Shown in pieces: positions 1,667-38,363 of a stretch of DNA of 64,000 nt. The DNA comes from a virus: positions 1 to 64,000 of the IMG/VR virus record IMGVR_UViG_3300002053_001113; one strand, given 5' to 3'. Under the pieces are notes generated by a model that had not been told where the DNA came from, did not search any database, and saw only the letters and a list, made by a program, of their open reading frames with translations. Numbering within the stretch: position 1 is the first letter of the stretch; every line of letters starts with the position of its first letter. Position numbers and translations under genes: made by a program.

Positions 1667-2938
1667 ATGAATAACTTTAAAATACAAGTAGAGGACGAAA
1701 GTAGTTTATTACCTGAGTTTATAGTAGATGAAAATACCAATTTTATGTTATTATATGATTGGCAAAGGAGAGCAATTGAGTTCTTTAATAAAAATAATAC
1801 CTGTATTTTTGAGGTTACAACTGGAGCAGGAAAAACTTTTTTTGCAATTGAAATTATAAAACGTTTGTTTAAAGAAGATGAAGATTTAAAAGTTTTAATA
1901 GTTGTTCCTAAAAATATTATACTTGAGGATACTTGGTTTAAACAATTATATGAATTTGGTTTTACAATGGCTGATGTTGGAGTTTATTATGGTTTTACAA
2001 AAGAGTATGGGAGAAAGATTACAATAACAAATATGCAAAATTTAGAGAAAGTAGCATTAGAAATGTTTGATATGGCAATTTTTGATGAAATACATAATTA
2101 TGGTACTAAACGTTTATTACCATTTTTAAAGTATCCTTTTAAGTATAAGATTGGTTTAAGTGCTACTGTGGAGAGGGGAGATAAAATGCATTGGGAGATA
2201 ATTAAAATATTTAATTATAAAGTTTTTAAATATACACCACAGGAGGCTTTACGTGATGATATACTTAATCCATTTAACTTTGTTAATATTGCTGTAGAAA
2301 TGGATGATGAAAATTATGAAAGATATGATATATTAACACAGGAAATTAACACATTGCTAAGAATGGGTGGTGGTTATAAAAAAATAATGGCAAGTGGAAC
2401 AGGATTAAAAAATAAGTTATTAAAAAAGATGACAGAAAGGAAAGAGTTAGTTAATAATTATTCACGTAAGTTTGATGTTGTTAAATTAATTTGTGAGGAA
2501 CACAAACAAGATAAGATAATTATTTTTAATGAGTTTAATGAGCAGACATCACGTTCATATTGGTATTTGTTAGATATAGGTGTGAAGGCTTGTGTTGTTC
2601 ATAGTACAATGCCAAAGAAAAAAAGAGAAGAGAATTTAATAGGTTTTAAAAATGATAGATACCAAGTAATGTTGGCAACTAAGGTTTTAGATGAGGGTTA
2701 TAACTTACCAAAATTAGATGTGGCAATAATAGCAGCTGGGAACAGTACCAGTAGACAAACAATACAAAGAATGGGTAGGGTTTTGCGTAAGAAAAATAAA
2801 GAGAGTATGTTATATCAGGTTTATGTTAAAAATACAATAGAGGAAAATTATTCAGAAGAGCGTGCTAAATTATTTAAGGAGTTATGTACAAAATATCATG
2901 AATATTTATATAAACTTGATGGGGAGTTGGTGTTATAA
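1667..2938 (+). CDS. Superfamily 2 DEAD/H helicase (XPB/Rad25/ResIII-like)
   Basis: Q motif DWQ, Walker A TTGAGKT, DEIH, motif III LSAT, V LDEGYNLP, VI QRMGRVLR. Confidence 0.93.
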   Translation: MNNFKIQVEDESSLLPEFIVDENTNFMLLYDWQRRAIEFFNKNNTCIFEVTTGAGKTFFAIEIIKRLFKEDEDLKVLIVVPKNIILEDTWFKQLYEFGFTMADVGVYYGFTKEYGRKITITNMQNLEKVALEMFDMAIFDEIHNYGTKRLLPFLKYPFKYKIGLSATVERGDKMHWEIIKIFNYKVFKYTPQEALRDDILNPFNFVNIAVEMDDENYERYDILTQEINTLLRMGGGYKKIMASGTGLKNKLLKKMTERKELVNNYSRKFDVVKLICEEHKQDKIIIFNEFNEQTSRSYWYLLDIGVKACVVHSTMPKKKREENLIGFKNDRYQVMLATKVLDEGYNLPKLDVAIIAAGNSTSRQTIQRMGRVLRKKNKESMLYQVYVKNTIEENYSEERAKLFKELCTKYHEYLYKLDGELVL

Positions 2939-3999
2939 TGCCGACAGAAGGATTAGGTTTTGGAAGAAGACATTTAATAAGTAAAATTATAACAGAGAAT
3001 TGGAAAGTTGATAAACCTGAAGATAAGAACTATACTTATAATGAATTATTGTTTATTATACAGGAGATGTTAGATGAGGAAGGTAAACAATATTTTGAAC
3101 CAAGAACAACACAAAGAGGATTTCAAATTTTTAGAGATTTTGTTAAACATTTGATGTATAGGAATTTAGCAAATTTTGATAGTATGATTTTGATAACAGC
3201 CGAGAAAGGTGTTGGTAAGAGTTCGGCAGCAATAATGTTGGCAAGGGAATGGTGTAAAATGATTGGAATACGTTTTAATCCAAAACGTCATATTGCATAC
3301 AACAACTCAGAAGTAATGGCTAAGATAGAGTTGTTAAGGAAGTTTGAACCTTTAATTTGTGATGAGGCGATTCGGTTTGCAAGTGCAGCAGATTGGAACC
3401 GTCGTGAGAATAAGGAACTAAAAAAGAGATTAGCACAGGTACGTACCAAACATTTATTTTATATTTTGTGTTTTCCACTTAAGATTTATAAGTTGGAAAA
3501 AACTTACTTGGAGAGTTATGTTAATTATTGGGTTGATTTGTTTGGCAGAGGTAGAGGTGCCATTTATGTTAAAGATAGAAACCCAGTACATGATAGCTGG
3601 CGCATGAAGGAGTTTTTAAAGATAGGAAGTTATACTGAATTTACGATATTGAGTAAAGTGAGAGAAAAACTAAAAAAACATCCTAACTTTTGGCAAATAA
3701 TTAAATTTCCAAAACCACCAAATTGGTTATATGAAAGATATTTAAAAATAAGGGAAAAAAATATTTATGATGATGAAAATGTAATGCAGAATGTAACAAA
3801 GGAAGATATACATAATTCTTTGTTAATTTTAGCCTTACGTGACATAATGATGCACGATACAACATTAACAATGAATAGGGTTATATTACATATTAAGAAT
3901 GAATATGATATTAATATAACAAAGGGAATGGTTCAAAGTGCTATTAATGATGCAAAACAATTGATATCCAAAATAAGAGAGCAGGCCATACAACCATGA
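2938..3999 (+). CDS. P-loop ATPase, probable virion morphogenesis/genome extrusion (Zot/FtsK-HerA-like)
   Basis: Walker A ITAEKGVGKS, Walker B LICDEA, downstream QVRTKHLFYILCFP with arginine-finger-like R. Confidence 0.8.
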   Translation: MPTEGLGFGRRHLISKIITENWKVDKPEDKNYTYNELLFIIQEMLDEEGKQYFEPRTTQRGFQIFRDFVKHLMYRNLANFDSMILITAEKGVGKSSAAIMLAREWCKMIGIRFNPKRHIAYNNSEVMAKIELLRKFEPLICDEAIRFASAADWNRRENKELKKRLAQVRTKHLFYILCFPLKIYKLEKTYLESYVNYWVDLFGRGRGAIYVKDRNPVHDSWRMKEFLKIGSYTEFTILSKVREKLKKHPNFWQIIKFPKPPNWLYERYLKIREKNIYDDENVMQNVTKEDIHNSLLILALRDIMMHDTTLTMNRVILHIKNEYDINITKGMVQSAINDAKQLISKIREQAIQP

Positions 4000-4403
4000 C
4001 GGATGAGATTAGAGAAAAAGTTTGGAATATTATGTTAGTTGTTCAAGAGATTAAGGATTTTCCACAAACTTATAATACTATCTTAGGTAAAGATAGAAAA
4101 GATGGAACATTACAAACTATTTTAAGACGAAAACTTAATAAATTATGTAAAGAAGGTACTATTTGTAGAACCACAATTCCTGGAACAAGATTTGGTAAGA
4201 CAGTTTTTTATTGTTTGCCAAAAAAATATCATATTTTAATTGAAGCAACAAGAATTGGCAGTAGTGTTTATTGTTTTTTTGATTTTGAAAAATTAGGTAG
4301 GTATTATGTTAAAATTTCACCATATTGGAAATTAGAAAAAGGAAATTGGAACAAAAAAGATGAAAAAATTATTTTTGAAGGAAATGTCTTAAAGTGGATT
4401 TAA
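3996..4403 (+). CDS. Probable winged-helix DNA-binding protein
   Basis: TILRRKLNKLCKEGTICR...GKTVFY wHTH-like pattern. Confidence 0.5.
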   Translation: MTDEIREKVWNIMLVVQEIKDFPQTYNTILGKDRKDGTLQTILRRKLNKLCKEGTICRTTIPGTRFGKTVFYCLPKKYHILIEATRIGSSVYCFFDFEKLGRYYVKISPYWKLEKGNWNKKDEKIIFEGNVLKWI

Positions 4404-4458
4404 AATCAACAAGTTTATATATTAGATATTCTATAACAGTTTTGTAGGGGGTTTTATA

Positions 4459-4875
4459 ATGACAATACCAGAACTGGTTATAATAATATTTTTAACTCAC
4501 TACACCGTTTATTTATTAAAACTCACCAACAAAAAGTTTAGACAGAGAATACAAGGTACAAATAAAAAGTTAAATAAGCTACGTAAGATTCCTGTTAAAT
4601 CTTTGGAAGACCAAAAAAAATTTTTAGATATAAAGTATCCAAAAAGACAAAAGAAAAAATTTAAGTTTACGTGGAAATGGTTGTTAAATATTTTATTTCA
4701 TTTAGCTTTATATATTGGTTTTATACAAGGCTACAGAATATTTTTTAGATGGATTGGGTTTGAGCTTAAATTTTGGATGATAATACCTGTTGTGTTTTTG
4801 TTACCAATAATAATAAATTTGATTTTACGTAGGTTCAATTTAGAAAAAAGTGATATCACAAATTATTTAAAATAG
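4459..4875 (+). CDS. Membrane protein (3 TM)
   Basis: ORF track; hydrophobic segments; BRE/TATA at 4404-4421. Confidence 0.7.
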   Translation: MTIPELVIIIFLTHYTVYLLKLTNKKFRQRIQGTNKKLNKLRKIPVKSLEDQKKFLDIKYPKRQKKKFKFTWKWLLNILFHLALYIGFIQGYRIFFRWIGFELKFWMIIPVVFLLPIIINLILRRFNLEKSDITNYLK

Positions 4876-4886
4876 GAGGGATATAT

Positions 4887-5399
4887 ATGACAGTTTTAGT
4901 AACGGTTGGTAGACGAGTACCTCGTTCTTGGTTTAGAAGACAGGCAACAAAGGTTAAAGGACTTTTGTCATTTCAAGAAAATATGTGGATTATGATTTCT
5001 CAGAGTCTTAATATGGCAAAGAAAAAGGCAAATGCAAGTGGTAAAATAAAGTTTGTTCTGACAAAGGAAAGAGAAGAAGAAGATATGAATTATTTTATTG
5101 AATGGATTAAAATTATTATACAAGGTACAAAGGAACAGGAAGAGGAGGAATATAATGAGGCAATGCAAATGTATCAACCTTTAAACAAAGTATTTAAAAA
5201 AGATTTTCCAAGAGATGACAACCTTGCTAAACATTTTAAAACAAAAGTTCTGTCTGGAACAAAGGTTGATGAGGCATATAATAAAGGTTATGGTGCTATA
5301 AAAGATGGTAATATGGCCAACAAATTATTGGAGATGGGCATACTTACGCATATAGAATGGATAAAGGATTTTGATACTAGAAAGGGAGATTATTTCTAA
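4887..5399 (+). CDS. Hypothetical protein
   Basis: ORF track; GGAGG RBS. Confidence 0.75.
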   Translation: MTVLVTVGRRVPRSWFRRQATKVKGLLSFQENMWIMISQSLNMAKKKANASGKIKFVLTKEREEEDMNYFIEWIKIIIQGTKEQEEEEYNEAMQMYQPLNKVFKKDFPRDDNLAKHFKTKVLSGTKVDEAYNKGYGAIKDGNMANKLLEMGILTHIEWIKDFDTRKGDYF

Positions 5400-5404
5400 A
5401 AAAG

Positions 5405-5423
5405 AAAGTATATATATAAAGGA
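5405..5423 (+). promoter_or_regulatory. Putative late promoter (A-rich + TATATATATAAAGGA)
   Basis: Same motif recurs at 22563, 29959, 33590 and 35526, each upstream of structural genes. Confidence 0.7.
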
Positions 5424-5445
5424 GTTCTGATATTGTAGTAATTTA

Positions 5446-5718
5446 ATGAGGGTAAAGACTATTATTAAAGTCTTGTGTTTGTTAATGGTGTTGGGTATTT
5501 CAGGATGCCAGAGAACAGAATATTTTTGTGATTGTGAAAAAATGGGGTATGTTCCGGTGGAAAAAGCAAACGAAGTAATTATTCTAACTAATGAGTTAAT
5601 TGATGCAGCTAATGTTTGTTATGGTTCTGAAATTCATCATATTCCTTTTTTTAGAAGGGGAATTCCTGGAGATGAAGTTTTTAATATAAGTGTTATAAAG
5701 GGTGGTGAGGTGTCTTAA
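5446..5718 (+). CDS. Putative lipoprotein
   Basis: Signal peptide with lipobox ISGC. Confidence 0.6.
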   Translation: MRVKTIIKVLCLLMVLGISGCQRTEYFCDCEKMGYVPVEKANEVIILTNELIDAANVCYGSEIHHIPFFRRGIPGDEVFNISVIKGGEVS

Positions 5719-5719
5719 G

Positions 5720-8700
5720 ATGGCTGAAGTTAGAAGTTTAGGAGGTGGTAGGGTTACTACAACAAGTTCAACTGCAAGATACATAGGTGGGGTTGGACCA
5801 AGTCGTATTATTAGAAGTGGAGGAGGTGGAGGTGCAGGAGGTGGAGCAGCTGCAGCACCAGCACCAGCACCAGCACCAAAAGTTGTTAGTACAAGAGTAC
5901 AAAGGTTGCCAAGTGGCGAAAGTATAATAACAAAAACTTATGATACTGGTAAAGTTGAATCAACAACAAAAACAGTTTCTGGAGAGTATGTGCCAACAAA
6001 GGCTGAAGGAAAGGTTACAGTTGTTGGAGATACAACTGCAGAAGAAGAAGTTTCTTATTTTAGAGGAAGACCAGGAACTGCTGTAAAACTACCAAGTGGT
6101 AAAGTAATTTATGGTGGAACACCAGGACACACACTAGGTGATGTTAGTTTAGCAGCTGAAAAACGTGTTCAAACGTATGTTGGAGGAGTTAAAGTTGCTG
6201 ATACTCAACGTGTTAAGGTTGGTGATGAGTGGGTTAGACCTGAGACTGTTTTAGCAAGACCTGAAAAATATTCTACAGGACAATATCAAGAAGCACTTAA
6301 AAAACAAGCTGAATATGAGGGTATGAGGTATTTAAGTAAAGAAGAAGCACTAAAACGTACTGAGGCACAACGTAAGGTGGTTGCAGAAAAAGAAGGTAGA
6401 GTATATGAACCACTTGAGTCAGTAAAGAAAATAGTAGATAAATTAGAAACAACAACTGCAAAGTTAGAAACTCCAACAAAGCTTGGACCAGAGGAACAAA
6501 AGCCAGAAGTATTGGAACCAATAATTAGTGAGGCAGTTACACCAGAGATTGTTAAATTAACTGAAAAAGAATTTACTGCAGGAGATGCAGCAGATTTAAA
6601 TAAGTGGAGAACAAGGTTAGAGGATAGTGCAACCACGTTAGAGAAAGATATTATGGATTATAATGCTTATAAGGCAGAGGTTCAAGCTGAAATAGAAGCA
6701 AGAGCAGCAGATGTTGATGTATATTCACAAAGAGAAATTGATGATTATAATGCATGGCAAACTGAAAAAATAGCAGAAGTTGATGCTAGGCGTATGGCAT
6801 TAGAGGAGAGAAAATCAAAAATTGATGCTGATTTACAGGCTTTTGACGCTAAGCGAACTGCTTTTAATGTTTTTGTAGAGGAGCAAAATGCTAGAAGTGA
6901 GGCACAACTAAAAGATTTGGAAAAAATAAAAGCAGCTGAGGAAGCTTGGAAAGAAAAGTGGTTTGAGAAAAAAACTGAGGATGGGCAAGAAGTTTGGGTT
7001 GAGAAAAAAGGATTTTTTGAGAAACCAGTTTCTTGGCTGTTAGGTCCTGCAAAAATTGTAGCACAACCAATAGAAGGATTTATTAGAGGTCAGGACAGGA
7101 AAGGAGAATGGAAAGATGTTGTAAAGATGCAGGAAGACTATATGAAAAAGTATTATCCTGTTGACCAAGAGGCTGTTACTAAAGCTGCATTAGCAGCATT
7201 AGAAGATATAAGAAAACAAACTGAGGCTGGAACATTAACTTATAATGAAGCCAATGTAATGGCTCAGAAAGTGCAGGAAGGTAAATTATTACTTCAACAA
7301 CCAATGACTACTGAAGGACCAATTGAGGCTACTATATTAACAGCAGCAGGGATTGAAACATCACAAGGTAAGGCAAAAGAGTTAGCTACAGAATTTGAAG
7401 TTTATAGACAAAGAAAAGAACGAGCAACTATATTACCAGAATATGCTGCAAGCCCAGGTATTACACAAGATTGGGTTGAACAAAAAAGAGTAATGACAGA
7501 ATTAGAAAAAAGAGCAGATGAGGCATATACAAAAGGAGCTGCAAGAGAATATGGAACAATAGCAGCTGCAATTGTTGCACCAGCTATTATTGGACATGGT
7601 TTGACAGCTTTGGCAGCAAGTAAAGCTCCATTAGTAAGATTAGCAGCACCTGCTGTGCCTGCAGTTGGTAAAGTGTTAATGGGTACTTGGTTAGCTGGTG
7701 AAGCAGCACAAACAGGAGTTGGAATAGCAGAATTATCTGAAGCTGAAAGTGATATTGAAAAAGAGGCAGCAGTAAGAAGATTGACAGGTGTTGGATTAAG
7801 AGGTTTAGGGGCAGCAGCTGGAATAAGATGGACTATGGCAACAGAGGGTAAACCTCTTACTAAATTATTTGAAGCAGCAAAACCAATTACAGAACCTATA
7901 AAAACATTTGCTACAAAAATTACTCCGCCCTCTGTTCAAGTAGCACCAACACGTGCAGCAGCTGGTGTTGAAAGGTGGTTGCTTGGAACTAAACTTGGAC
8001 AAACCTTATGGCCAAGTGTTACAGCTTATCCTCCTGGTTGGCCACCAACTGTTACAACTGGTCCTAGAGTAGTACCACCAGAAACTATACCTGAATGGAG
8101 AGTTCCAGAGGGGGTTAGAGTTGGAGAAACTGGTGAATTATATCCAACTTATGCTGAAGGAGAGTATCAATATACATTAACAGGAAGAAGATTAGCACCA
8201 AGAGAAATTAGGGAACCATACAGAGTTTGGGCAGAAGAACCATATTTTGGTCCTGAGGTTCCGCGTGTTTTAACAAGTCAATATGAACCTTTTACTACGA
8301 GAGCAACAAGGATAACAATGGTAAGAGACCCATATACTGGTGAACTAAAGGTTGTTACTGATATAGTTCCGCGCCAACCTGTTGTTGTAAAAGGTAGACC
8401 TGGTGAAGAGATGCCAGGTGTGGAAGAAGTGTTTTTGGCAAAGGAGAAGGTAGAAGGTTTAATACCAAGAGCAACAGAAGAAGGTGTTAAATGGGTTCCA
8501 ATTGAGGAGAAAATGCCAAGTTTAACAGAAAAATGGTTTAGTGCTGTTGATACTGAAACAGGAATAAGATATGATATTTATCCTGACCAATTATTAAAAG
8601 CTGGAGACTATACACTTATTACTGACCCACAAAGTGGTAGGATAATTGGAAGAGCAGATAAATTTACACAATGGACAGAGATTGATAGACCAATAGACCA

Positions 8701-9946
8701 ATTAGTTATAGATAAAATCAAACAACAATATAAAATTAATTTGCAAGAATATTATCAAGTTCCAGAAACAACACAAACTGATATAAGGCAATGGACAGGT
8801 AGAGCAGAGCCCGAAGCTAAGACGTTTTGGCAGAGACTTGGTGAAAAAACAGGAGTGCTTAAACCAAAAGTAGTTGAACCAAGTGTTGTGACAGAACCAG
8901 TAGTTGTTGTTAAAAAAGCGGAAACAGGAAAACCTTATCAATATGAAGTTACGGCTGAGGGTGTTGATATTGCATTAGATGTGTTACCACCAGAACAACA
9001 AAGTATATGGAAAATGAAATTAGATGCAGCTAAAGCAGCTGAGGCAAAAGCAAGATATGAAGCTTTATCAGAAAAATCTAAAGGTGGTAAAAAAGTTGTT
9101 GAAGAAGAGGAGGAAGTAATGGCAAGCTTAGCAGAGCAAAGAAAGGTAGCAGAATCACAATTATGGGAAACAGCTGGATATGTTGCTAGACAACAGTTAC
9201 CAGTAATAAGAGCATATCCTGAGTATGCAGCTAGAACTGTTCCTGGGTTAGCTACTAGACAGCCAACACTTGCACCAGAAGCTGTAGCAGTTGCAAAGAC
9301 AACGGGTGTACCTATTGCTGCTACAGTACCTCTTTATGGTTTAGAAAGTGTATCAGTTCCAGTTGAATTGCCAGTACAAAGAATAGAGAATATATTAGGT
9401 ACACAACCAGCACTTGATGTTTTACCAGAATTGAAATTAGAATATGAGGGTGTTGTATTACCAATAAGTGAGGTTACTCCTGAATTAGATACTGTCGAAA
9501 GAACTGTAATAGAAAGAATAACCGAAGTTGAAAGAGTTCCTGAAACTGAGATTGTTCCAGGAATAGGTGTAACACCATCATTAACAGGAATTAAACCAGG
9601 TTGGTTGACAGGTCTTGGAATACCAGCAATAGGTTTACCAGCTGCAGGAAAAGGTGTTGATTATTTAAGAGGAACAATGGGTTGGACAGTTCTTAATCCT
9701 GTTAGAGATTTCCCAAGTGAGTTTTTAGCTAGACAGAGAGAAAAAGATAGGCAGAGACAAATGCAACAAATGATAAGTAGGACATTACCAACTTTTGGTA
9801 CAACACAACAGATAGGGCAAAGAATGATGACAGGAATGGGCGGAAGTGAATTACTTAAAGGAAAAATTACCACAACCTCAGTTCCAACAACTCAAGGACT
9901 AATGACTGGTATGGCTGGTGAAGATTTACTTAAAGGAAAAATATAG
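5720..9946 (+). CDS. Very large (~1400 aa) coiled-coil/low-complexity protein, possible internal virion protein
   Basis: Gly/Ala/Pro N-terminus, long coiled coil, central hydrophobic Ala-rich segments, C-terminal duplicated MTGMxGxxLLKGKI; start at ATG after GGTGAGGTG. Confidence 0.8.
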   Translation: MAEVRSLGGGRVTTTSSTARYIGGVGPSRIIRSGGGGGAGGGAAAAPAPAPAPKVVSTRVQRLPSGESIITKTYDTGKVESTTKTVSGEYVPTKAEGKVTVVGDTTAEEEVSYFRGRPGTAVKLPSGKVIYGGTPGHTLGDVSLAAEKRVQTYVGGVKVADTQRVKVGDEWVRPETVLARPEKYSTGQYQEALKKQAEYEGMRYLSKEEALKRTEAQRKVVAEKEGRVYEPLESVKKIVDKLETTTAKLETPTKLGPEEQKPEVLEPIISEAVTPEIVKLTEKEFTAGDAADLNKWRTRLEDSATTLEKDIMDYNAYKAEVQAEIEARAADVDVYSQREIDDYNAWQTEKIAEVDARRMALEERKSKIDADLQAFDAKRTAFNVFVEEQNARSEAQLKDLEKIKAAEEAWKEKWFEKKTEDGQEVWVEKKGFFEKPVSWLLGPAKIVAQPIEGFIRGQDRKGEWKDVVKMQEDYMKKYYPVDQEAVTKAALAALEDIRKQTEAGTLTYNEANVMAQKVQEGKLLLQQPMTTEGPIEATILTAAGIETSQGKAKELATEFEVYRQRKERATILPEYAASPGITQDWVEQKRVMTELEKRADEAYTKGAAREYGTIAAAIVAPAIIGHGLTALAASKAPLVRLAAPAVPAVGKVLMGTWLAGEAAQTGVGIAELSEAESDIEKEAAVRRLTGVGLRGLGAAAGIRWTMATEGKPLTKLFEAAKPITEPIKTFATKITPPSVQVAPTRAAAGVERWLLGTKLGQTLWPSVTAYPPGWPPTVTTGPRVVPPETIPEWRVPEGVRVGETGELYPTYAEGEYQYTLTGRRLAPREIREPYRVWAEEPYFGPEVPRVLTSQYEPFTTRATRITMVRDPYTGELKVVTDIVPRQPVVVKGRPGEEMPGVEEVFLAKEKVEGLIPRATEEGVKWVPIEEKMPSLTEKWFSAVDTETGIRYDIYPDQLLKAGDYTLITDPQSGRIIGRADKFTQWTEIDRPIDQLVIDKIKQQYKINLQEYYQVPETTQTDIRQWTGRAEPEAKTFWQRLGEKTGVLKPKVVEPSVVTEPVVVVKKAETGKPYQYEVTAEGVDIALDVLPPEQQSIWKMKLDAAKAAEAKARYEALSEKSKGGKKVVEEEEEVMASLAEQRKVAESQLWETAGYVARQQLPVIRAYPEYAARTVPGLATRQPTLAPEAVAVAKTTGVPIAATVPLYGLESVSVPVELPVQRIENILGTQPALDVLPELKLEYEGVVLPISEVTPELDTVERTVIERITEVERVPETEIVPGIGVTPSLTGIKPGWLTGLGIPAIGLPAAGKGVDYLRGTMGWTVLNPVRDFPSEFLARQREKDRQRQMQQMISRTLPTFGTTQQIGQRMMTGMGGSELLKGKITTTSVPTTQGLMTGMAGEDLLKGKI

Positions 9947-9957
9947 GTGATGTTAAG

Positions 9958-10266
9958 ATGAACAAAAAAGGATATAGTACTGGTTTTACCTGGGTTTATG
10001 GATTAATAATATTGTTTGGATTAGGTATAATGTATATTGTGTTCAACCAAGTATTTGTAGCACACCTAGTGCCAACTGTTAAAGGCATAGCAAACGACAC
10101 TATGATAAGTGGTGATATTGATAATGCTACATTAACAGAAATAAATAGTGGAATTGATAAATATATGACGTTTTTTCATACTCTTCCATTTATATTATTT
10201 TTTATAGTTGTAATATATATGATAATTGCAGCTATAAGAAAGGAAAGAGAGAGTGAATATCGTTAG
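9958..10266 (+). CDS. 2-TM protein with class III (prepilin-like) signal MNKKG; possible minor virion protein
   Basis: MNKKG followed by a hydrophobic helix; second TM LPFILFFIVVIYMII. Confidence 0.7.
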   Translation: MNKKGYSTGFTWVYGLIILFGLGIMYIVFNQVFVAHLVPTVKGIANDTMISGDIDNATLTEINSGIDKYMTFFHTLPFILFFIVVIYMIIAAIRKERESEYR

Positions 10267-10277
10267 GAGGTAAAAAA

Positions 10278-11510: not shown

Positions 11511-11527
11511 AGATTAGTGGTGATTAT

Positions 11528-23693: not shown

Positions 23694-23696
23694 AAA

Positions 23697-24017: not shown

Positions 24018-24018
24018 T

Positions 24019-25950: not shown

Positions 25951-25960
25951 GTGAGACAAA

Positions 25961-28045: not shown

Positions 28046-28046
28046 A

Positions 28047-28610: not shown

Positions 28611-28626
28611 ATAGGGGGTTTTAGAA

Positions 28627-29286: not shown

Positions 29287-29287
29287 A

Positions 29288-29956: not shown

Positions 29957-29958
29957 AT

Positions 29959-29977
29959 AAAAATATATATATAAAGA
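29959..29977 (+). promoter_or_regulatory. Putative late promoter
   Basis: AAAAATATATATATAAAGA. Confidence 0.7.
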
Positions 29978-30021
29978 AGGAGACTAATAATAGTTTTAAA
30001 TTAGAGGGTAATGGAGAAAAA

Positions 30022-33000
30022 ATGAGAATTATACTATTGTTTCTACCTTTATTTATGTTAATTATATTGCCTTTTGTTTTGGCTAATCCAGCACCTCAAG
30101 CTGAGATTACAACTGATACAACATTAATAGGAGATGCAAATGTAACACAATGGAATATAACAGGAGCAGTGCTTGATTGCCAAGGAGCAACTCTAACAAG
30201 AGAAAGTGGAACTGATTACATTATTCATTTAAATAATGGTGCAGTTGTGAAGAATTGCATCATAGATGACTCAGCTAGTTATCAGACAGTAACGATTGAC
30301 CAAAGCAATGTTGTGTTTGATAATAACACAGTTATTATGAATTATGATGGTCATCCTTTCTGGATTGGTGCGGTTAGCAATGTAAATATAACAAATAACC
30401 ATCTTGTTCAGTTATACGCTGATACTGGTTTTATTGGCAGCTCAGGGTCAAATAATATTAGGATAATTGGCAACAGATTAGACGGAGATGGTTCCAATCC
30501 AATAGGTATTTGGGGTGCTTCATATGATTATTTTATTGAGGATAATTATATTAATGGTAGCAGAGGAATAATTTTTGAGGAAGGGTCTCATGATATCACT
30601 ATTAGGAATAATACATTTGTGAATTATGAATCTGGTAGGGCAATCACTTTTGATGAAAATCAGAATATTCATGATGTCTTGATTGAAGACCATTATGTAT
30701 CAGGAACAGGTCAATTTATTTATGCTACAAATGCAAGTAACATAATGATAAGAGATAATATCTGGCAGGATGCCAATCCAAACAATTTTATTATGAGATT
30801 TGGTGATGGTAATAACCTTACTGTGTATAACAATACATTTAATAATTTAACCTTTGTAAATCCAGGAACTGATGTACGTATTATTGAATTTGATGGTGGT
30901 AATTTTAATAATGTTTTAGTTCAAGATAATTATATTAATAATATTGTGGTTAAAGATTATGATACTATACTTTCAACAACTGGGAATATGGTTAATTTTA
31001 CAATTGATGGTAACTATATTAATAATATTTGGTGGCCAGTGTGGAGTGATGATACAATACACGTTCTTGAAATAACATCACAGAATAATAATACTTATAT
31101 AACAAATAATCATATATCAAATGTTACAAATAATAATGCTAGCAATGGTGGCTTAATTCATATGAGAAATGATAATTTTAATATTGTGATAGATAACAAT
31201 ACATTTGCTGATTGTGTTTGGTATTCTGATGATAATTTTATTTGGTATGATGTACTTAACTTGGAGGGGGTTGGTATTAATGTAACTAATAATATATTTG
31301 AGGATTTTTATATGTATGGTAGTGATAATTATAATAACATAATTAATATCCACAATGCTTACAATATGTTAATTGATGGAAACACCTTTCAACGTTTATA
31401 TGCACCTGAGGGAATACTTAATATTGGAACTGCAGATAATATAATTGTATCTAATAATATTTTTACACAGTTTGGTGACCAGGGAGGTAGTATGTTTGGA
31501 ACTGGTAGTTCTTCAACTTATTTATTATTTAAAGATAACAATTGGTCTTATACTAATAATAGTGCTATGTTTTGTGGTAATTACATACTTAATATGACTG
31601 GAAACAGATTTAATAATCTTTTTATAGAGCAAGATATTAATATATTTTGTTTGCAACCAAATGATACCATAACTTATAATGTTTTTAATGATATAACATA
31701 TACAAGTGGGCAATTTTTTAATTTAGCAAGTGGTAGTAATTATTGGATTAATTATAATAATTTTAGCAATATTGATTTTATTAATGGATATCAGTTACTT
31801 TGGGACCAAGCAGATACTACTGATGTAGAATTTGTAGGAAATAGATTAATTAATATAACAGGAACATCAGGAGTTATACACCCTAATGGTGATAATTATT
31901 TAATTGAGGATAATTTATTTCAAAATTTTGATGGTTGGGCATTATTTTTTGATAAAGGAGATAATTATATAGTAAGAGAAAATAGATTTATTGATACAGG
32001 AACAATTGCAATGAATTCTAATAGTGGTGATTATCTAGAAAATTATTTGTTTGAAGATAATTTATTTCAAGATATAATCAATGATACATATATGGGAGGA
32101 GCACTTTTTTTCCATAATATAACTTGGAATAAAAATAATTTTAGCATAACCCGTAATTGTCTTGATATTTCTGGGGCATCACATTATTGTTTTTGGAATG
32201 GTGTGAGAGGGTTTAATAGTTTTACAAATAATAATTTTTTAACTAATGGTTTTAATATGAGTTGGTCTTTTCCAGCATCAGTAATATTATTTGATACAGA
32301 CCTTTTTGAAGAAGTATTGGTAGAAAACAATACAGGACCTTTTAGTATAGTTCCAAGGTTAAGATATGGTAGTGATATGAATTTGACAGTTAGAAATAAT
32401 AATATTGTTTATAATTATTTTCCAGAACATTCTTATTATGAGTATAATGCACAGGAGGCGTTTATCTATTTATATGAATATAGTGGGGAGACTGATACAG
32501 TTTATAATGTACTTTATGAAGGAAACACGTTTACTTCAAATGGTGATAGTACTATGATTTACCCAAGATTAATATCTCCTGATGATAATGTTTTAATAAA
32601 TGGAAATACATTTAATGGCGATATTGTGTATATATTTAGGACAGCAAACCAAGAGAATTATATTACTTATAGTGGAAATACATTAAATAATGTAAATGTT
32701 AATATGATACCATTCTTTGATTTTAATATATCATCATCACATGATTTTTTTAGTAAGGCAGATAGAATTGATTTAGATGCTAGACACATTTGGGGTGGTA
32801 ATATAGCAGGAATAACAGGAGATATGAATGATTTACAGATTGGCAATGTGGTACTGTTACCAGCTAATACCAATGTAAATTTGTTAAATTTAGTTTTAGA
32901 GGCTCCAATACTTAATAATGGTACAAATAATAGTTTTAATGTAGAAGGAATGACTTATGTAAATATAACCAATTATGTAGAAGAAGATGAAAATCAAACT

Positions 33001-33588
33001 CCGGAATTTACTGGAAATACAACCAATTTGGCTGTTAATGTTAATATACAAAATGTCTCATTAGTTTTAGATAATAACCAAGGCACTATTGAATGGGAGC
33101 AACCTGTAAATTTAACTGTTAATGGAAATATTGATGCTATAGTTGAAATAGGTACCAATACTATTGAGGTTAAAACAAATCTTAATCCAAGTATGAATAA
33201 ACCAGCAAGATTGACATTTAAAGATTTAACCTATACAAATGTTGACCAATTTGATGTATATAAAAATGGTGTAATTTGTACATCAAGCGAATGTTATGAT
33301 GAGGAATTTGTTGGTAACTATTATAGGTTGAGAGTTAGTAGTTTTAGTAATTTTACCTTACGTAATAGTTTTGATATGAATACTTATTTAGGAGTAAGAG
33401 ATGATTTGTTTGTGATATTAGGGGCGTTTGCTTTCTTGGTAGTTATGATTGGTGCTGCTATTGTATTAATGATACTTACTGGAAGCTTTGATACCACAAG
33501 CACATTAAGTATTATATTAGTTGCAGCATTAGGTTTTGCACTTTTAATGGCTGTATTAATGGCTATATTAACTAACTTTGTGGTATGA
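30022..33588 (+). CDS. Right-handed parallel beta-helix (pectin lyase/NosD-like) surface protein, membrane anchored
   Basis: Signal peptide, many NxxIxxNxF repeats, C-terminal domain plus 2 TM shared with the next gene. Confidence 0.85.
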   Translation: MRIILLFLPLFMLIILPFVLANPAPQAEITTDTTLIGDANVTQWNITGAVLDCQGATLTRESGTDYIIHLNNGAVVKNCIIDDSASYQTVTIDQSNVVFDNNTVIMNYDGHPFWIGAVSNVNITNNHLVQLYADTGFIGSSGSNNIRIIGNRLDGDGSNPIGIWGASYDYFIEDNYINGSRGIIFEEGSHDITIRNNTFVNYESGRAITFDENQNIHDVLIEDHYVSGTGQFIYATNASNIMIRDNIWQDANPNNFIMRFGDGNNLTVYNNTFNNLTFVNPGTDVRIIEFDGGNFNNVLVQDNYINNIVVKDYDTILSTTGNMVNFTIDGNYINNIWWPVWSDDTIHVLEITSQNNNTYITNNHISNVTNNNASNGGLIHMRNDNFNIVIDNNTFADCVWYSDDNFIWYDVLNLEGVGINVTNNIFEDFYMYGSDNYNNIINIHNAYNMLIDGNTFQRLYAPEGILNIGTADNIIVSNNIFTQFGDQGGSMFGTGSSSTYLLFKDNNWSYTNNSAMFCGNYILNMTGNRFNNLFIEQDINIFCLQPNDTITYNVFNDITYTSGQFFNLASGSNYWINYNNFSNIDFINGYQLLWDQADTTDVEFVGNRLINITGTSGVIHPNGDNYLIEDNLFQNFDGWALFFDKGDNYIVRENRFIDTGTIAMNSNSGDYLENYLFEDNLFQDIINDTYMGGALFFHNITWNKNNFSITRNCLDISGASHYCFWNGVRGFNSFTNNNFLTNGFNMSWSFPASVILFDTDLFEEVLVENNTGPFSIVPRLRYGSDMNLTVRNNNIVYNYFPEHSYYEYNAQEAFIYLYEYSGETDTVYNVLYEGNTFTSNGDSTMIYPRLISPDDNVLINGNTFNGDIVYIFRTANQENYITYSGNTLNNVNVNMIPFFDFNISSSHDFFSKADRIDLDARHIWGGNIAGITGDMNDLQIGNVVLLPANTNVNLLNLVLEAPILNNGTNNSFNVEGMTYVNITNYVEEDENQTPEFTGNTTNLAVNVNIQNVSLVLDNNQGTIEWEQPVNLTVNGNIDAIVEIGTNTIEVKTNLNPSMNKPARLTFKDLTYTNVDQFDVYKNGVICTSSECYDEEFVGNYYRLRVSSFSNFTLRNSFDMNTYLGVRDDLFVILGAFAFLVVMIGAAIVLMILTGSFDTTSTLSIILVAALGFALLMAVLMAILTNFVV

Positions 33589-33589
33589 T

Positions 33590-33609
33590 AAATATATATA
33601 TATAAAGGA
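33590..33609 (+). promoter_or_regulatory. Putative late promoter
   Basis: AAATATATATATATAAAGGA. Confidence 0.7.
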
Positions 33610-33651
33610 AAAGACAAATTAATCTATTAAAGTAGTGGGTAGAGCGTTAAG

Positions 33652-35523
33652 ATGAGAGTGAAGACATTAATATTACCTTTATTTATACTATTTCTAGTAC
33701 CCTTTGTTTTTGCTGCAGTACCAGTAATAGACACTGCTTTAATTAACATTACAGCACCATCTCCAGTTGATGATTTGCCTGGTTATTGTAAGGCAAATGA
33801 TAGTGATGGAGGAACACTTACGTATTATTATAGATGGTATAGTAATGGTGTTTTAAGATATGAGTGGGTTGAGGAGAGCAGTGCTGTCCAGGGAGCACAC
33901 AACGATGGTGTAGATAGAAAGTGGCCACATCTAATATATAACTTAACAGGAGATGATAGTTGGATTATGATTAGTGGCGCTAATAAAGATGAGGCAGAGG
34001 AGTTTTATGGATATAGATGGAATGGTACAGAATGGGTAGCAAACAGTAGTGTAGTTGCTGGTTTAAATACTGTATTATCAGGGAATCAAGATGCGTATAT
34101 AGCAGGTGGCTATAATGTAAGTGGAGATGGAAAATATGATGTGTGCATTACGGATTATAGTCTAAACAATAATAATATGCAATGGAATGGTACAGAATGG
34201 GTAGCGGGTGGAACAACTTGTATGTCTTCAATTGGTACAGGACCATACCCAAACGTTATGGAAAATTTATTTAATAATGGTGACTGGTATGGTTTTACTC
34301 ATACTTGTTGTAGTGGAGGCACAAACGGATGGACAAGGTCGCCAGGAGATGTAGGTTGGACAAGTGACAACACAGTATTTTCAACAATAATTGCAAGTGG
34401 CCACCACACTATATATGGTGCTTATATAAATAATGTTCCAACTGTTGTGTTTTTACACTCATCTTGGCACACAAACAGATTTTATGAATGGAATGGAACT
34501 GCTTTTGAATATAAACCACTTATGGACCTTTATACAGGACATTACTCCAAGTTTGGAGGACAATTTGTTTATGATTTTAATAATGAGGGAAAGTGGAGGA
34601 TTTTTGAAGGACACTACAATAGCGCGCAATTTAGGTCTTATTTGTTTAATGATTTATTTAATGTGGCAAGTGTACCAGAAAGCACATTATATAATGTTGA
34701 AAACATATCCTCTGATAGGACTTCCAATAGTGAAAATTGGACGTTATCGTGTATGGCAAGTGATGGCACAAGCAATAGTAGTTGGCTAAACGATACTGTT
34801 GTGATTGAGGTTTGTCCTGAGACTGTAAGTAATATAACAGAAAACACAAATTTATATGGTGAGGGTTGTGTTGTACAGACTGTGAACGTACAGGAGAATG
34901 GAAGAATTGATTGTGCAGGTGGAGGATTAACTGGCAGTGGAGGATTTACTTTAGCATTAACTGGTGAGAATTCTGCCTTAACTAATTGTACTTTACAGAA
35001 CGTGAATTTGGTGGTAGATGTGCCAAGTGGAGGCATAGTGTTTCCAACTTTAAATGCAACAATAACCGATACAACTAATAATATCGTTATACAGCCAAGG
35101 TCAATTTATGTTGATAGTACAGCATTACCAGATTTAGATGTACCAGCAAGTTTAACATTTAGGAATACTGGTTATACAACCTTGGAGCAATTTGATGTTT
35201 ACAAAGATGGTGTTGAGTGTACAGATTGCGTTGAGGGTGACATAGTAAATGGAACATTTAATATGAATGTAACAGGGTTTAGTAATTTTACATTAAGAGA
35301 TGGAATTGATTATGCTACATATAAGACAGTAAGAGATGATGCTATATACATACTTGGAGTATTTGCTTTAGTTGTTGTTTTATTAGCTGCCACCTTTGTT
35401 GTTATGTTTGTTTTTGGCAAGATGGAGATTGATGTTTTACTACCTATTATACTTGCCTTAGCAGCAGGAGCTGCTGTATTGATGGCTGTGTTTTATGTGA
35501 TTGCGCAGGCTATGATAGTTTAA
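33652..35523 (+). CDS. Membrane-anchored surface protein (Ig-like plus propeller-like WNGTEW repeats)
   Basis: Signal peptide; DSDGGTLTYYYRW Ig-like motif; WNGTEW repeats; C-terminal module homologous to 30022-33588. Confidence 0.82.
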   Translation: MRVKTLILPLFILFLVPFVFAAVPVIDTALINITAPSPVDDLPGYCKANDSDGGTLTYYYRWYSNGVLRYEWVEESSAVQGAHNDGVDRKWPHLIYNLTGDDSWIMISGANKDEAEEFYGYRWNGTEWVANSSVVAGLNTVLSGNQDAYIAGGYNVSGDGKYDVCITDYSLNNNNMQWNGTEWVAGGTTCMSSIGTGPYPNVMENLFNNGDWYGFTHTCCSGGTNGWTRSPGDVGWTSDNTVFSTIIASGHHTIYGAYINNVPTVVFLHSSWHTNRFYEWNGTAFEYKPLMDLYTGHYSKFGGQFVYDFNNEGKWRIFEGHYNSAQFRSYLFNDLFNVASVPESTLYNVENISSDRTSNSENWTLSCMASDGTSNSSWLNDTVVIEVCPETVSNITENTNLYGEGCVVQTVNVQENGRIDCAGGGLTGSGGFTLALTGENSALTNCTLQNVNLVVDVPSGGIVFPTLNATITDTTNNIVIQPRSIYVDSTALPDLDVPASLTFRNTGYTTLEQFDVYKDGVECTDCVEGDIVNGTFNMNVTGFSNFTLRDGIDYATYKTVRDDAIYILGVFALVVVLLAATFVVMFVFGKMEIDVLLPIILALAAGAAVLMAVFYVIAQAMIV

Positions 35524-37366: not shown

Positions 37367-37757
37367 TCACATTAGTGTGAATAAAAGGTGAGGTGCTGAT
37401 AGGATGGCAAAAGGCAGAAAGAAAAAGAAGTAAATATGTTACTAAGGAGTTACTGATAAAATTGTTTTTTTAATTTTAAATTTTAAAATTTGAGGAGTAA
37501 CACATGGCGAAGGATGTTGATGATATAATTAAGGAGGAAATAAAAGAAGGTGTTGACTTCTTTTTTAGATGGAAGAAGGCAATAACAGCACACTTGAAGA
37601 AAAAATGAGATTTGGAAGAAAAACATTAGAAGAAATAAAAGAAGAGGATGAGATAATAAGAGCAAGTGATTTGGATTTAAAATTGAAAACACCGCAGTTT
37701 TGGAAACGTGATGATATGGGTGAGATATAATGGCAAGAATAAAACGGAGGTAGTAAA

Positions 37758-37928
37758 ATGTATTATCAAAGAGTTTCAAACAAAGATTTTGAACAAAACA
37801 TTAAAGGGAAGCTACCGTTTGGTGGGTGGGTTTTAATAAATGAGCCAACTATAAGACATCTGGGAGTTAAACCAGGTGATGTGATTGTTAATAAATACAG
37901 AACAATATATTTTAGGGTAAAAGGATAA
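37758..37928 (+). CDS. Hypothetical protein (56 aa)
   Basis: Manual translation; CGGAGGT RBS. Confidence 0.55.
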   Translation: MYYQRVSNKDFEQNIKGKLPFGGWVLINEPTIRHLGVKPGDVIVNKYRTIYFRVKG

Positions 37929-37929
37929 A

Positions 37930-38136
37930 ATGGCAACAATTAAAGATATGAAACCTTGGATGACACCAACCAAATTTGAACGAGAAAGGTTTAAATTAGT
38001 AAAAAAAGATGGAGAATTTTTTATTGGTTATAATGGTGATTTACTTATGTCTCTTCACACTACTGACAAAAAAGAGGCTGAAGAGATGTTTGGATTAAGA
38101 GTTGATAAAGTTATAGAAAATATTAATAGAGGGTGA
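37930..38136 (+). CDS. Hypothetical protein
   Basis: ORF track. Confidence 0.6.
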   Translation: MATIKDMKPWMTPTKFERERFKLVKKDGEFFIGYNGDLLMSLHTTDKKEAEEMFGLRVDKVIENINRG

Positions 38137-38141
38137 TATAA

Positions 38142-38363
38142 ATGCCAGCAAATCTAAGATTTTACAATAGAGACCCAAACGGGTTAGGTAGAGGACGTGG
38201 AGTCTATTATCATAGAGGACATGGATATTGGAGTAAGTATGATGTAGGTAGAGATGCTAAGATACAGGCGAGAGGATATAGAACACACAAGACAGGATTG
38301 AGTAAAACAACTGGTAAGGCAAGTAAGATAGCACAAGCAGGAGATGGCAAACTACCACGTTAA
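38142..38363 (+). CDS. Very basic Gly/Arg-rich small protein, possible nucleoprotein
   Basis: GLGRGRGVYYHRGHG; GGTGA RBS. Confidence 0.65.
   Translation: MPANLRFYNRDPNGLGRGRGVYYHRGHGYWSKYDVGRDAKIQARGYRTHKTGLSKTTGKASKIAQAGDGKLPR

Follow-up and report, generated by a model that had tools for sequence, protein, structure and literature searches.

The IMG/VR record IMGVR_UViG_3300002053_001113 (82,649 bp), of which positions 1 to 64,000 constitute the stretch of DNA analyzed here (hereafter the window), is interpreted, with moderate confidence, as the genome of an uncultivated marine spindle-type virus, most likely archaeal, belonging to the assemblage in which the virion is built from a small hydrophobic hairpin protein together with an ATPase of the type known from SSV1 (B251) and His1 (ORF16). 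This interpretation is adopted because three features, namely the ATPase, the design and genomic setting of the hairpin proteins, and the lack of tailed-virus genes, fit the published criteria for placing metagenomic viruses in the spindle group, whose signature pair is a hydrophobic alpha-helical major capsid protein (MCP) and an AAA+ ATPase (bioRxiv 2025.02.15.638363). The window genome is probably a new family-level lineage of already known spindle-type viruses, in line with a preliminary description of the window that had proposed a large, non-tailed, probably spindle-shaped archaeal virus. The relatives with which it is compared are a 116,032-bp linear genome and a 125,063-bp genome, both from IMG/VR (the 116-kb and 125-kb relatives), a locus designated L002, and two contigs, C38 (11.9 kb) and C32, of one metagenome-assembled genome (MAG).

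A signature ATPase of the His1 and fusellovirus family

The P-loop ATPase encoded at 2938-3999 of the + strand (353 amino acids, aa) was assigned to the SSV1 B251/His1 ORF16 family by PHROG and hhalign comparisons. Its best match among 38,880 PHROGs, at E 7.3e-6 and over 206 of the 239 profile positions (25-230), was phrog_5484, the profile that in a control scan recovered B251 of SSV1 (5e-101), A232 of ASV1 (1e-106) and ORF16 of His1 (3e-62). In profile-profile alignments with hhalign, a profile of 32 ATPase homologs was matched to His1 ORF16 at 94 % (E 1.4e-7, 144 columns) and to SSV1 B251 at 37-39 %, and the comparison with a three-sequence profile of ORF16, B251 and A232 reached 96.8 % (E 3e-10, 180 columns); the negative controls from the same genome, namely the clamp loader, both superfamily 2 (SF2) helicases and a 719-aa P-loop protein, stayed at or below 21 % on 16-64 columns. 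On these alignments the product of 2938-3999 is identified as specifically homologous to the signature ATPase shared by His1 and the fuselloviruses, the ATPase by which VP1/His1-type spindle viruses are recognized is present in the window, and the link to spindle viruses that the preliminary description had drawn is upheld through this gene. The protein probably works as a morphogenesis or DNA-handling motor.

The AlphaFold2 (AF2) model of the ATPase (predicted local distance difference test score, pLDDT, 80.3) displays an ASCE P-loop core, with VirB4, HerA, GspE, TcpA, STIV2 B204, FtsK, RecA-like, AAA+ and Zot proteins as structural neighbors (Z 9.8-8.0). The earlier assignment as Zot/HerA-like is compatible with this model, but it is not separated from the VirB4, FtsK or AAA+ alternatives, and no class was chosen because the folds retrieved by Foldseek and VIA-align tie within about 1.5 Z. 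A search for homologs returned 412 sequences at E<=0.001, carried on contigs with lengths of up to 183, 125, 107, 103, 97 and 93 kb, and 15 of the 120 homologs listed contain the intein domain PF14890. Searches of GenBank phage and archaeal-virus records with tblastn gave only chance-level P-loop matches, and the ATPase profile found nothing meaningful among PDB sequences. The copy in the 125-kb relative (69646-70407) matches residues 141-345 only and is missed by the phrog_5484 profile.

Three tandem hairpin proteins as candidate major capsid proteins

Three tandem genes of the + strand, at 22626-22850 (74 aa), 22881-23177 (98 aa) and 23235-23456 (73 aa), encode alpha-helical hairpin proteins that, from transmembrane (TM) prediction, AF2 modeling and their homologs, are the candidate MCPs. 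Two hydrophobic segments are predicted in every one of the three paralogs, and AF2 folds the protein into a helical hairpin (H2-29 and H38-72; mean pLDDT 84.4). The small size (about 70-90 aa) and the hydrophobic two-helix architecture of spindle-virus MCPs are thus found in all three, and to that extent the proposal of VP1-like capsid genes in the preliminary description stands; a sequence relationship to VP1 or VP21 did not emerge. The hairpin family was aligned by hhalign with SSV1 VP1, a fusellovirus VP1/VP3 alignment and His1 VP21 at 0.3-2.6 % (2.6 % and 1.8 % for the full-length family, 0.3-1.4 % for the trimmed core), and the positive control, fusellovirus VP1/VP3 against His1 VP21, reached 3.1 % only; because even these accepted homologs score so low, the profile comparison is without power. 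The fusellovirus VP1/VP3 PHROGs 11172 and 5402 gave no match at E<=0.1 for the three paralogs, although VP1 and VP3 of SSV1 and ASV1 matched them at 1e-12 to 1e-73 in a control; His1 VP21 itself has zero PHROG matches. A tblastn search of the GenBank phage and archaeal-virus records with the capsid candidate returned nothing even at E 10, a search in which the low-complexity filter may have masked the query.

The N-terminal 27 residues are identical across the three paralogs and the C-terminal helices are near-identical, the loop between them being where the proteins differ and where N-X-S/T sequons are located. A codon comparison of the paralogs gave, for each conserved helix, synonymous differences in 12-20 of 28-30 codons and non-synonymous ones in 0-2, a large synonymous excess that is incompatible with a recent duplication or with gene conversion and indicates strong purifying selection on the helices. 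Each hairpin gene start is preceded by a GGAGG box. The family comprises 883 homologs at E<=0.01, the best 120 of which are all at least 78 % identical, and clustering at 50 % leaves 83 representatives; in many relatives, long acidic N-terminal extensions precede the hairpin, and in SSV1 the mature VP1 is the C-terminal 73 aa of a 144-aa open reading frame (ORF). Capsid-like gene copies are present in L002, C38 and the 116-kb and 125-kb relatives.

When run on the record, the hidden Markov model (HMM) of the family recovers the three paralogs only. The C-terminal double-TM anchors of the adhesins, considered as further capsid-like hairpins, were rejected for this genome (E>0.5 against the family HMM). 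Elsewhere, long proteins with a C-terminal match to the hairpin family were observed (for example P0193, 634 aa, and P0200, 730 aa; E 2.5e-4 to 6e-4).

Completeness of the genome and lack of tailed-virus hallmarks

The viral record is a single contig that IMG/VR places in the class of direct terminal repeats, and a scripted comparison of its ends found an exact head/tail overlap of 104 bp and no inverted repeat, leaving 82,545 bp of unique sequence once the redundancy is removed. A phosphoribosyltransferase-like ORF (140 aa, with a VVDDVSDTGGT motif) crosses the junction, positions 82280-82649 being joined to 1-157 of the window; owing to this overlap and to the ORF that reads across it, the genome is taken as complete, circular or terminally redundant. 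The guanine-plus-cytosine content (GC) is 0.31, and the GC skew switches sign at ~40 kb, the genes running on the + strand between 0.4 and 40 kb (the structural arm) and on the - strand between 41 and ~79.6 kb (the enzymatic arm), with the two arms converging at 40040-40347 of the window. No Rfam family was found at the gathering threshold at the convergence point, nor any tRNA, rRNA or other Rfam family in this genome.

In the whole 82,649-bp record, zero matches were obtained at E<=1 with PF05065, PF03237 or PF04860, and the 116-kb and 125-kb relatives likewise gave zero with PF03237 (Terminase_6N) and PF05065 (Phage_capsid). Among the 50 proteins scanned with Pfam and the 30 scanned with PHROG, no capsid, portal, terminase or tail family was found other than a single phrog_10 match, which spans 61 residues of a coiled-coil region at E 0.0061. 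These tests were made at the profile level, portals other than PF04860 being covered by the per-protein Pfam scans, and at that level the HK97-fold MCP, the terminase large subunit and the portal that define Caudoviricetes were not found. The preliminary description had seen none of the three in the window and had suggested that the remainder of the contig be inspected; no profile match to them was obtained there either, and cellular housekeeping genes, which would have pointed to host pilins, were seen in no scan of the record. A large genome (>64 kb) without detectable tailed-virus hallmarks, as described earlier, is confirmed.

The genome is also present in marine sediment and seawater sequencing runs. 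Two further metagenome studies, both of marine sediment and from one year, contain 74-80 % of the sampled words from positions 20001-30000 of the window; since the year is the same, the two may represent a single campaign.

A lineage of related genomes

Both the 116-kb and the 125-kb relatives carry capsid-like genes together with the ATPase. The 125-kb relative has direct terminal repeats (87-bp overlap) and a GC of 0.277, and the GC across the window genome and the two relatives ranges from 0.28 to 0.33. Shared within the lineage are the genes for the helicase and the ATPase, for the 170-aa and MNKKG proteins, for the C-terminal part of the 1556-aa protein and for the 3-TM proteins, the capsid genes and the trio at 28047-29956, to which the integrase, the family B DNA polymerase (PolB), the clamp loader and the nuclease-helicase are to be added; L002, C38 and the 125-kb relative are collinear with the window in the block that surrounds the capsid genes. 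The large numbers of homologs (883 capsid-like and 412 ATPase sequences) imply that this lineage could make up a significant and so far unrecognized share of the virome of marine archaea.

A search of 185,579 species genomes gave a single match, a MAG titled 'uncultured Thermotogaceae bacterium', to which C38 and C32 belong. The whole of C38 is covered by homologs of genes of this virus, as is a 4-kb stretch of C32, with only genes of this virus lineage and no cellular gene appearing there; the presence of these contigs in the MAG is probably a binning artifact and not a host signal. A search of the same MAG with its own viral contig found short imperfect matches (71-91 % identity) and no spacer-like identity.

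Two peculiarities of the relatives were also recorded. The 125-kb relative contains an array of 17 tRNA genes (75007-79820), AT-rich and divergent, whose domain is not assignable by eye, and the 116-kb relative has one tRNA-Thr. On the - strand of the 116-kb relative, positions 1798-17682 form a single ORF of ~5,294 aa, the C-terminal part of which matches the 1556-aa giant of the window.

Other genes of the structural arm

All of the genes in this section lie on the + strand. The ATPase gene is preceded by an SF2 helicase at 1667-2938 (ResIII/Helicase_C, XPB-like; Pfam Helicase_C 9e-21, ResIII 1.5e-17), which has homologs in the 116-kb (53 %) and 125-kb (39 %) relatives, and is followed at 3996-5399 by three small conserved proteins of 135, 138 (two TM segments) and 170 aa, recognized by their homologs and free of Pfam matches; these homologs adjoin the ATPase in the 116-kb relative and in C32, and that of the 170-aa protein is found in the 125-kb relative as well. 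The gene at 5702-9946 encodes a 1414-aa protein with one TM segment, distinguished by its composition (rich in Ala, Glu, Val and Pro; Asn 0.7 %; zero sequons) and by its GC of 0.38 versus 0.31, with no Pfam, PHROG or PDB match and no homolog in the 116-kb or 125-kb relative. A 102-aa protein with two TM segments (7-25 and 68-97) that starts with MNKKG is encoded at 9958-10266; it has homologs in the 116-kb (69 %) and 125-kb (36 %) relatives, which makes it a core gene of the lineage, and zero matches in Pfam, PHROG and NCBIfam. The 410-aa Pro/Ala/Gln-rich protein at 10278-11510 has no Pfam match and a weak one to phrog_23043 (5.5e-4), contains 1.7 % Asn and is, together with the 1414-aa protein, a GC outlier (both 0.37-0.38). 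An N-terminal tag, M-x-x-I-D-K-S-I...G, followed by a D-x-D-G-V-P-D-x-x-D-C-x-P-x-N motif, is common to otherwise unrelated proteins, the bearers being those starting at 10278 and 36365 in the window and two on the - strand beyond it.

Six secreted giants of 623-1807 aa are interspersed among these genes. The first (1807 aa, 11528-16951) is a candidate adhesin with an N-terminal signal and with LamG and DUF2341 domains (Laminin_G_3 5.5e-25, DUF2341 5e-7), and the second (1556 aa, 16948-21618), from its C-terminal TM anchor (1486-1552) and its homologs, is a candidate virion-anchored fiber or adhesin, of which the C-terminal ~466 aa are conserved throughout the lineage, with homologs in L002, C38 and the 116-kb and 125-kb relatives. 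Two variable secreted proteins of 643 and 694 aa (24019-28045), sequon-rich, provided with N-terminal signals and missing from the collinear block of C38, are candidates for host recognition. The remaining two (30022-35523), of 1188 aa (with a right-handed beta-helix; Beta_helix 7.7e-9) and 623 aa, carry C-terminal double-TM anchors at 1122-1188 and 559-623, respectively, and are candidate fibers or adhesins. N-terminal hydrophobic signals occur in all six and C-terminal TM anchors in three, so that the membrane-anchored, N-glycosylatable adhesins of the preliminary description are retained with regard to secretion and sequons, and with regard to the anchor for half of the set.

The glycosylation potential was evaluated against shuffles that preserve the composition of each protein. 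N-X-S/T sequons number 274 in the six secreted proteins versus 117 expected (2.3-fold; z 3.1-11.1 per protein), distributed as 82 versus 40.8 in the 1807-aa protein, 67 versus 22.8 in the 1556-aa protein, 44 versus 12.2 and 26 versus 8.8 in the 643-aa and 694-aa proteins, and 37 versus 24.2 and 18 versus 8.3 in the 1188-aa and 623-aa proteins, whereas fourteen non-secreted proteins contain 32 versus 30.3 expected. The extended bacterial PglB-type sequon has D or E at position -2; these residues occupy that position in 21 of the 274 sequons (7.7 %) versus a D+E background of 10.7 %, and since they are not raised there, the extended sequon is not what is selected.

Directly upstream of the capsid genes, and collinear in L002 and C38, three small conserved proteins are encoded at 21615-22558, of 140 aa (2 TM), 96 aa (3 TM) and 75 aa (soluble), and a conserved three-TM protein of 106 aa, with homologs in C38 and the 125-kb relative, follows the capsid genes at 23697-24017. 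A conserved trio at 28047-29956, consisting of a 187-aa protein, a 219-aa protein with a TM segment at either end and a 222-aa protein, has homologs in C38 (36-58 %, the 219-aa one duplicated) and in the 125-kb relative (36-37 %); no Pfam or PHROG match was found at E<=0.01 other than a sub-cutoff one of the 222-aa protein to Pfam YfkB (E 0.0073), and these are probably morphogenesis or virion proteins. Toward the end of the arm, a basic protein of 73 aa (38142-38363) has a weak homolog (32 %, 2e-7) at the end of the structural block of C38, and the last gene of the arm (39388-40047) encodes a radical-SAM protein of QueE-like type (Radical_SAM 2.9e-9).

The enzymatic arm

The polymerase, integrase, DNA-modification and ubiquitin genes that had been named from the window were all confirmed by Pfam. 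A ubiquitin-like (Ubl) system composed of a ThiF-type E1 and a JAB protease is encoded at 45190-46465 of the - strand (ThiF 1.1e-32, Prok-JAB 2.8e-8). The tyrosine integrase lies at 53173-54312 of the + strand (Phage_integrase 1.3e-16), and in its NCBIfam ranking recomb_XerA_Arch (1.6e-17) comes first, ahead of PRK00283.1 (4e-7), the best of the bacterial-type Xer models, XerC (5.6e-7) and XerD (2.6e-6). PolB, with an N-terminal RNase H-like exonuclease domain, is encoded at 59341-61194 of the - strand (DNA_pol_B 8e-16, RNase_H_2 4e-5); in tblastn it gave only ~24 % identical matches, to polymerases of T4-like cyanophages and pelagiphages and of some haloviruses, and in its sequence it resembles RNA-primed polymerases. 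The polymerase of His1, by comparison, is protein-primed.

A 7-deazaguanine DNA modification set is made up of a TGT/DpdA-like transglycosylase (62205-63392, - strand; TGT 2.9e-11), the QueE-like protein and, beyond the window, FolE (GTP cyclohydrolase I, 1.4e-53) and a QueD-type 6-pyruvoyltetrahydropterin synthase (PTPS, 5e-29), the last two being Pfam matches. Further genes recognized with Pfam encode a family-4-type uracil-DNA glycosylase (UDG), an AAA+ clamp loader, a PD-(D/E)XK-plus-SF2 nuclease-helicase, a cupin, a SLOG protein, a DUF932 protein and radical-SAM proteins. A sliding clamp was matched by the NCBIfam PRK01115 families (E 4e-8, below the curated cut-off), which we take to represent the archaeal PCNA. 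A 490-aa protein that adjoins the 719-aa P-loop protein matches nothing in the family scans.

A promoter-like element and other regulatory signals

The promoter-like element aaaaatATATATATAAAgga (20-25 nt) is present in the window at 5410, 22571 (22571-22581), 29965, 33596 and 35532, all five copies being on the + strand, intergenic and within the structural arm, and its core, ATATATATAAA, has 5 matches versus 0.51 ± 0.67 expected. The element ends 45-47 nt ahead of a start codon in the copies at 22571, 29965 and 33596 and 26 nt ahead of one in the copy at 5410, and for the copy at 35532 the next listed ORF begins 167 nt downstream. The element precedes the first capsid gene in C38 and in the 116-kb relative too, and it may be a late or structural-gene promoter. 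A further copy was noticed on the - strand at about position 75580 of the record.

The appearance of aaaaatATATATATAAAgga is that of an archaeal promoter with a B recognition element (BRE) and a TATA box. Sigma-70-like sites are not enriched (100 versus 96.8 ± 9.6 in shuffled sequences), and the sigma-70 and terminator counts are not decisive for either domain. On the - strand, the sequences at 47148-47118, 50337-50303 and 52242-52205 form perfect hairpins of 13-17 pairs followed by T-runs, resembling intrinsic terminators; they are situated at gene ends of that strand, one of them just after the Ubl gene.

Alternative explanations

Several observations weigh against the spindle-type interpretation. 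As for the ATPase, the phrog_5484 profile also matches in 9 of 14 control cellular genomes, so that this match alone is insufficient and the claim is carried by the profile-profile result with its negative controls, and the structural neighbors fail to separate AAA+ from FtsK/HerA-type folds. As for the hairpin proteins, their hhalign scores with VP1 and VP21 are no better than those with unrelated two-TM proteins, no PHROG or Pfam capsid family was matched by the paralogs, and Foldseek comparison of the model with PDB and BFVD gave nothing at E<=0.001 and only generic helical hairpins, all at E>0.1, a fold comparison that is as uninformative on homology as the profile alignments. A helical hairpin is a common membrane-protein shape, and the capsid role is a prediction from sequence. 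To these points are added the Uroviricota labels of the ESM Atlas clusters closest to the clamp loader, the T4-like phages that provide the best tblastn matches of PolB, and a P-loop protein of 719 aa (record 77427-79586), zinc-ribbon-like in its N-terminal half, that has no family match in Pfam, PHROG, NCBIfam, tblastn or PDB. The CheckV completeness figure of the record, 19, is at odds with its terminal repeat, terminator-like hairpins are mildly enriched (15 versus 8.9 ± 3.2), and the TATA-like element aaaaatATATATATAAAgga resembles a T4 late promoter too; because it is both BRE/TATA-like and T4-late-like, it was counted for neither domain.

An undescribed virion architecture (enveloped, pleomorphic or membrane-derived), in which the hairpin proteins are envelope or matrix membrane proteins unrelated to VP1 by descent and the B251-type ATPase acts in replication or elsewhere in the viral cycle, is the main alternative, although it is considered unlikely. 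It would account for the failure to connect the hairpin family with VP1 or VP21 by sequence or by fold, for the annotation of B251-family proteins as 'DnaA-like replication initiation protein' in the records, for the position of the ATPase gene beside a helicase and 19 kb from the hairpin genes, and for genome sizes (82.5 and 125 kb) that exceed the largest spindle-virus genome found in the literature consulted (72.6 kb). Nevertheless, the missing link weighs little because the same test fails on accepted homologs, and the hairpin family parallels SSV1 and His1 in protein size and two-helix architecture, in its tandem paralogs, in the sequons of its loop, in the N-terminal extensions and in the surrounding gene module. 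A broader form of the same idea, to which a comparably low probability is attached, is that the hairpin proteins arose independently of VP1 and that the 80-125-kb genomes constitute a separate high-rank lineage of archaeal viruses, either with an architecture of its own or with the largest lemon-shaped capsids known, infecting an abundant uncultivated group of marine archaea such as DPANN; to such a lineage would belong a replisome of its own, a ubiquitin-like system, 7-deazaguanine DNA and, in the 125-kb relative, tRNA arrays.

A non-viral element, that is, a large archaeal plasmid or mobile element with surface proteins for conjugation, adhesion or vesicles, is quite improbable. No capsid is proven, an integrase, DUF932 and replication genes are aboard, and B251-type ATPases also occur on plasmids and satellites, namely PL6-family plasmids and SRCEs (bioRxiv 2025.02.15.638363); against this, the Pfam, PHROG and NCBIfam scans brought up no family of conjugation or partition proteins, genomes of 82-125 kb keep the structural block collinear and under strict conservation, the hairpin gene is equipped with a strong promoter and a ribosome-binding site, and IMG/VR classes the records as viral.

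The least probable explanation, a cryptic member of the head-tailed Caudoviricetes in which divergence would have put the HK97 capsid, the portal and the terminase beyond detection and whose hairpin proteins are holins or other membrane proteins, could invoke the Atlas clusters of the clamp loader and the LamG adhesin (mostly Viruses/Uroviricota), the distantly T4-like PolB, several proteins of 187-490 aa with no assigned fold and DpdA-type DNA modification, which is common in tailed viruses, but against it stand the zero hallmark profile matches in a complete genome and zero PF03237 or PF05065 matches in two relatives, the lack in the scans of any head, tail, connector or packaging family bar the phrog_10 match, the usual detectability of terminase large subunits, and hairpin genes far too conserved and numerous for holins.

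The host

An archaeon is the most likely host. Support comes from a sequon excess confined to the secreted proteins, with no D/E enrichment at -2, from the first rank of the archaeal XerA in the integrase comparison, from the PRK01115 clamp and from the lack of sigma-70 enrichment. The archaeal assignment thus has indirect support in the sequon statistics, in an ATPase family known from archaeal viruses and in the matches of the integrase to XerA and of the clamp to PRK01115, the last two of which fall below curated cut-offs. No named archaeal match was found among the homologs of the capsid-like proteins, the ATPase or the integrase, the nearest ESM Atlas clusters of the adhesin module carry viral or bacterial labels, the integrase search yielded 29 homologs, 0 of which had an organism name, and the only organism label among 7 clusters looked up was '[bacterium]'.

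A DPANN host (Woese- or Pacearchaeota-like), as guessed in the preliminary description, is at present a tentative suggestion with the greater part of the probability lying elsewhere. The low GC (0.28-0.33 in the window genome and the 116-kb and 125-kb relatives) and the occurrence of the genome in marine sediment and seawater runs would agree with it, since DPANN archaea occur in both habitats, but GC and habitat fit other archaea equally, for example Nitrosopumilales and Lokiarchaeia. Spindle viruses of another DPANN lineage, the Nanohaloarchaeota, do exist, namely DNSV-1 and DNSV-2 (20.8-22.1 kb; bioRxiv 2025.02.15.638363). Nevertheless, no result points to DPANN: best-hit taxonomy, from which the suggestion could have gained support, gave no DPANN match, the labels obtained being viral or bacterial, both for the Atlas neighbors and for the clusters, and the integrase homologs (0/29 organism-named) offering none.

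Proposed virion assembly and significance

Under the spindle-type interpretation, and by analogy with SSV1 and His1, the hairpin proteins would insert into the host membrane with their variable, sequon-bearing loop possibly facing outward and glycosylated, and would assemble into a capsid lattice around the DNA, helped by the ATPase and the small TM proteins; the virion might then leave by budding or extrusion, with no terminase-type packaging, and the giant C-terminally anchored glycoproteins might act as terminal fibers or adhesins that recognize the host. The enzymatic arm, with PolB, the clamp, the clamp loader, helicases, UDG, the 7-deazaguanine genes, the Ubl system and the integrase, would provide for largely autonomous replication and for DNA protection, and would permit integration.

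If this interpretation is true, the spindle virion design extends toward large viruses with a replisome, DNA hypermodification, Ubl conjugation and tRNA arrays, of which large versions have so far been reported only for the viruses of ANME-1 archaea. The conserved helices with their free, sequon-bearing loop offer a handle for structural work, and the glycoprotein adhesins one for host-range work.

Comparison with known spindle-shaped viruses

Spindle-shaped viruses are specific to archaea, their capsid family is thought to be very old, and cultivated members have genomes of 9-30 kb. In the Bicaudaviridae and other tailed-spindle viruses (ATV, STSV1/2, SMV1), about 48-76 kb are contained in lemon-shaped particles, so that spindle capsids can hold large DNA, although their MCP is a larger helical-bundle protein, unlike the 73-aa two-TM hairpin.

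His1 (Halspiviridae, NC_007914) provides, with ORF16, the closest characterized relative of the window ATPase. Its MCP, ORF21, has 73 aa and two TM segments, the same length and architecture as the product of 23235-23456, and the order of MCP, 3-TM proteins and proteins with a signal and a C-terminal anchor (ORF21, ORF23-27) is mirrored by the module of the window, although no significant sequence similarity between the MCP candidates and that of His1 was found by hhalign, a test in which accepted homologs fail alike. His1 differs in its 14.5-kb linear genome with inverted repeats and a single MCP, compared with 82.5 kb, direct terminal redundancy and three MCP paralogs here, and its record names a 'DNA polymerase type B', whereas the PolB of the window is of the RNA-primed kind in its resemblance. 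The Fuselloviridae (SSV1, NC_001338; ASV1, NC_013585) share the B251/A232 ATPase family, and SSV1 has the hairpin capsid paralogs VP1 and VP3 in tandem, as in the tandem arrangement of the window, and a VP1 ORF of 144 aa with an N-terminal extension, as in relatives of the window family. The fuselloviruses also have a large end-filament protein and a tyrosine integrase, the latter in common with the window, yet their genomes are of 15-24 kb, their hosts are hyperthermophilic Sulfolobales, and the VP1/VP3 PHROGs that mark the Fuselloviridae in the strict sense were not matched by the three paralogs.

Among uncultivated viruses, the wyrdviruses of Asgard archaea and DNSV-1/2 were assigned to the spindle group on the same two markers, MCP and ATPase. 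His1-like MCPs are given as about 80 aa long with two hydrophobic segments, fusellovirus VP1/VP3 and His1 VP21 are treated as homologs, and the ATPase of the wyrdviruses is placed near the one encoded by filamentous phages (bioRxiv 2021.07.29.453957). The wyrdviruses come from deep-sea sediments, have one or two MCP paralogs and carry an adhesin in the morphogenetic module; at 20 kb or less, and 20.8-22.1 kb for DNSV, these genomes, compared by description only, are much smaller than the 82.5 kb found here.

The closest parallel in size is offered by the predicted spindle-shaped ANME-1 viruses, which include the tepeuvirus PBV144 (72.6 kb, incomplete), possess an RNA-primed PolB, QueCDEF, a structural and an enzymatic arm and one or two hydrophobic alpha-helical MCPs per genome, and were found in metagenomes of marine sediments and vents (PMC9894754). 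The statement in the preliminary description that described VP1-type spindle viruses are much smaller has to be corrected accordingly; in the literature searched, no hairpin-MCP virus above 72.6 kb (82-125 kb) was found described. Compared by description only, the ANME-1 viruses and the virus of the window have in common a large genome, two arms, PolB, Que genes and helical MCPs, and the present lineage is set apart from the ANME-1 viruses by its genomes of 82.5 and 125 kb, its GC of 0.28-0.33, its three MCP paralogs, its Ubl system and its giant sequon-rich adhesins.

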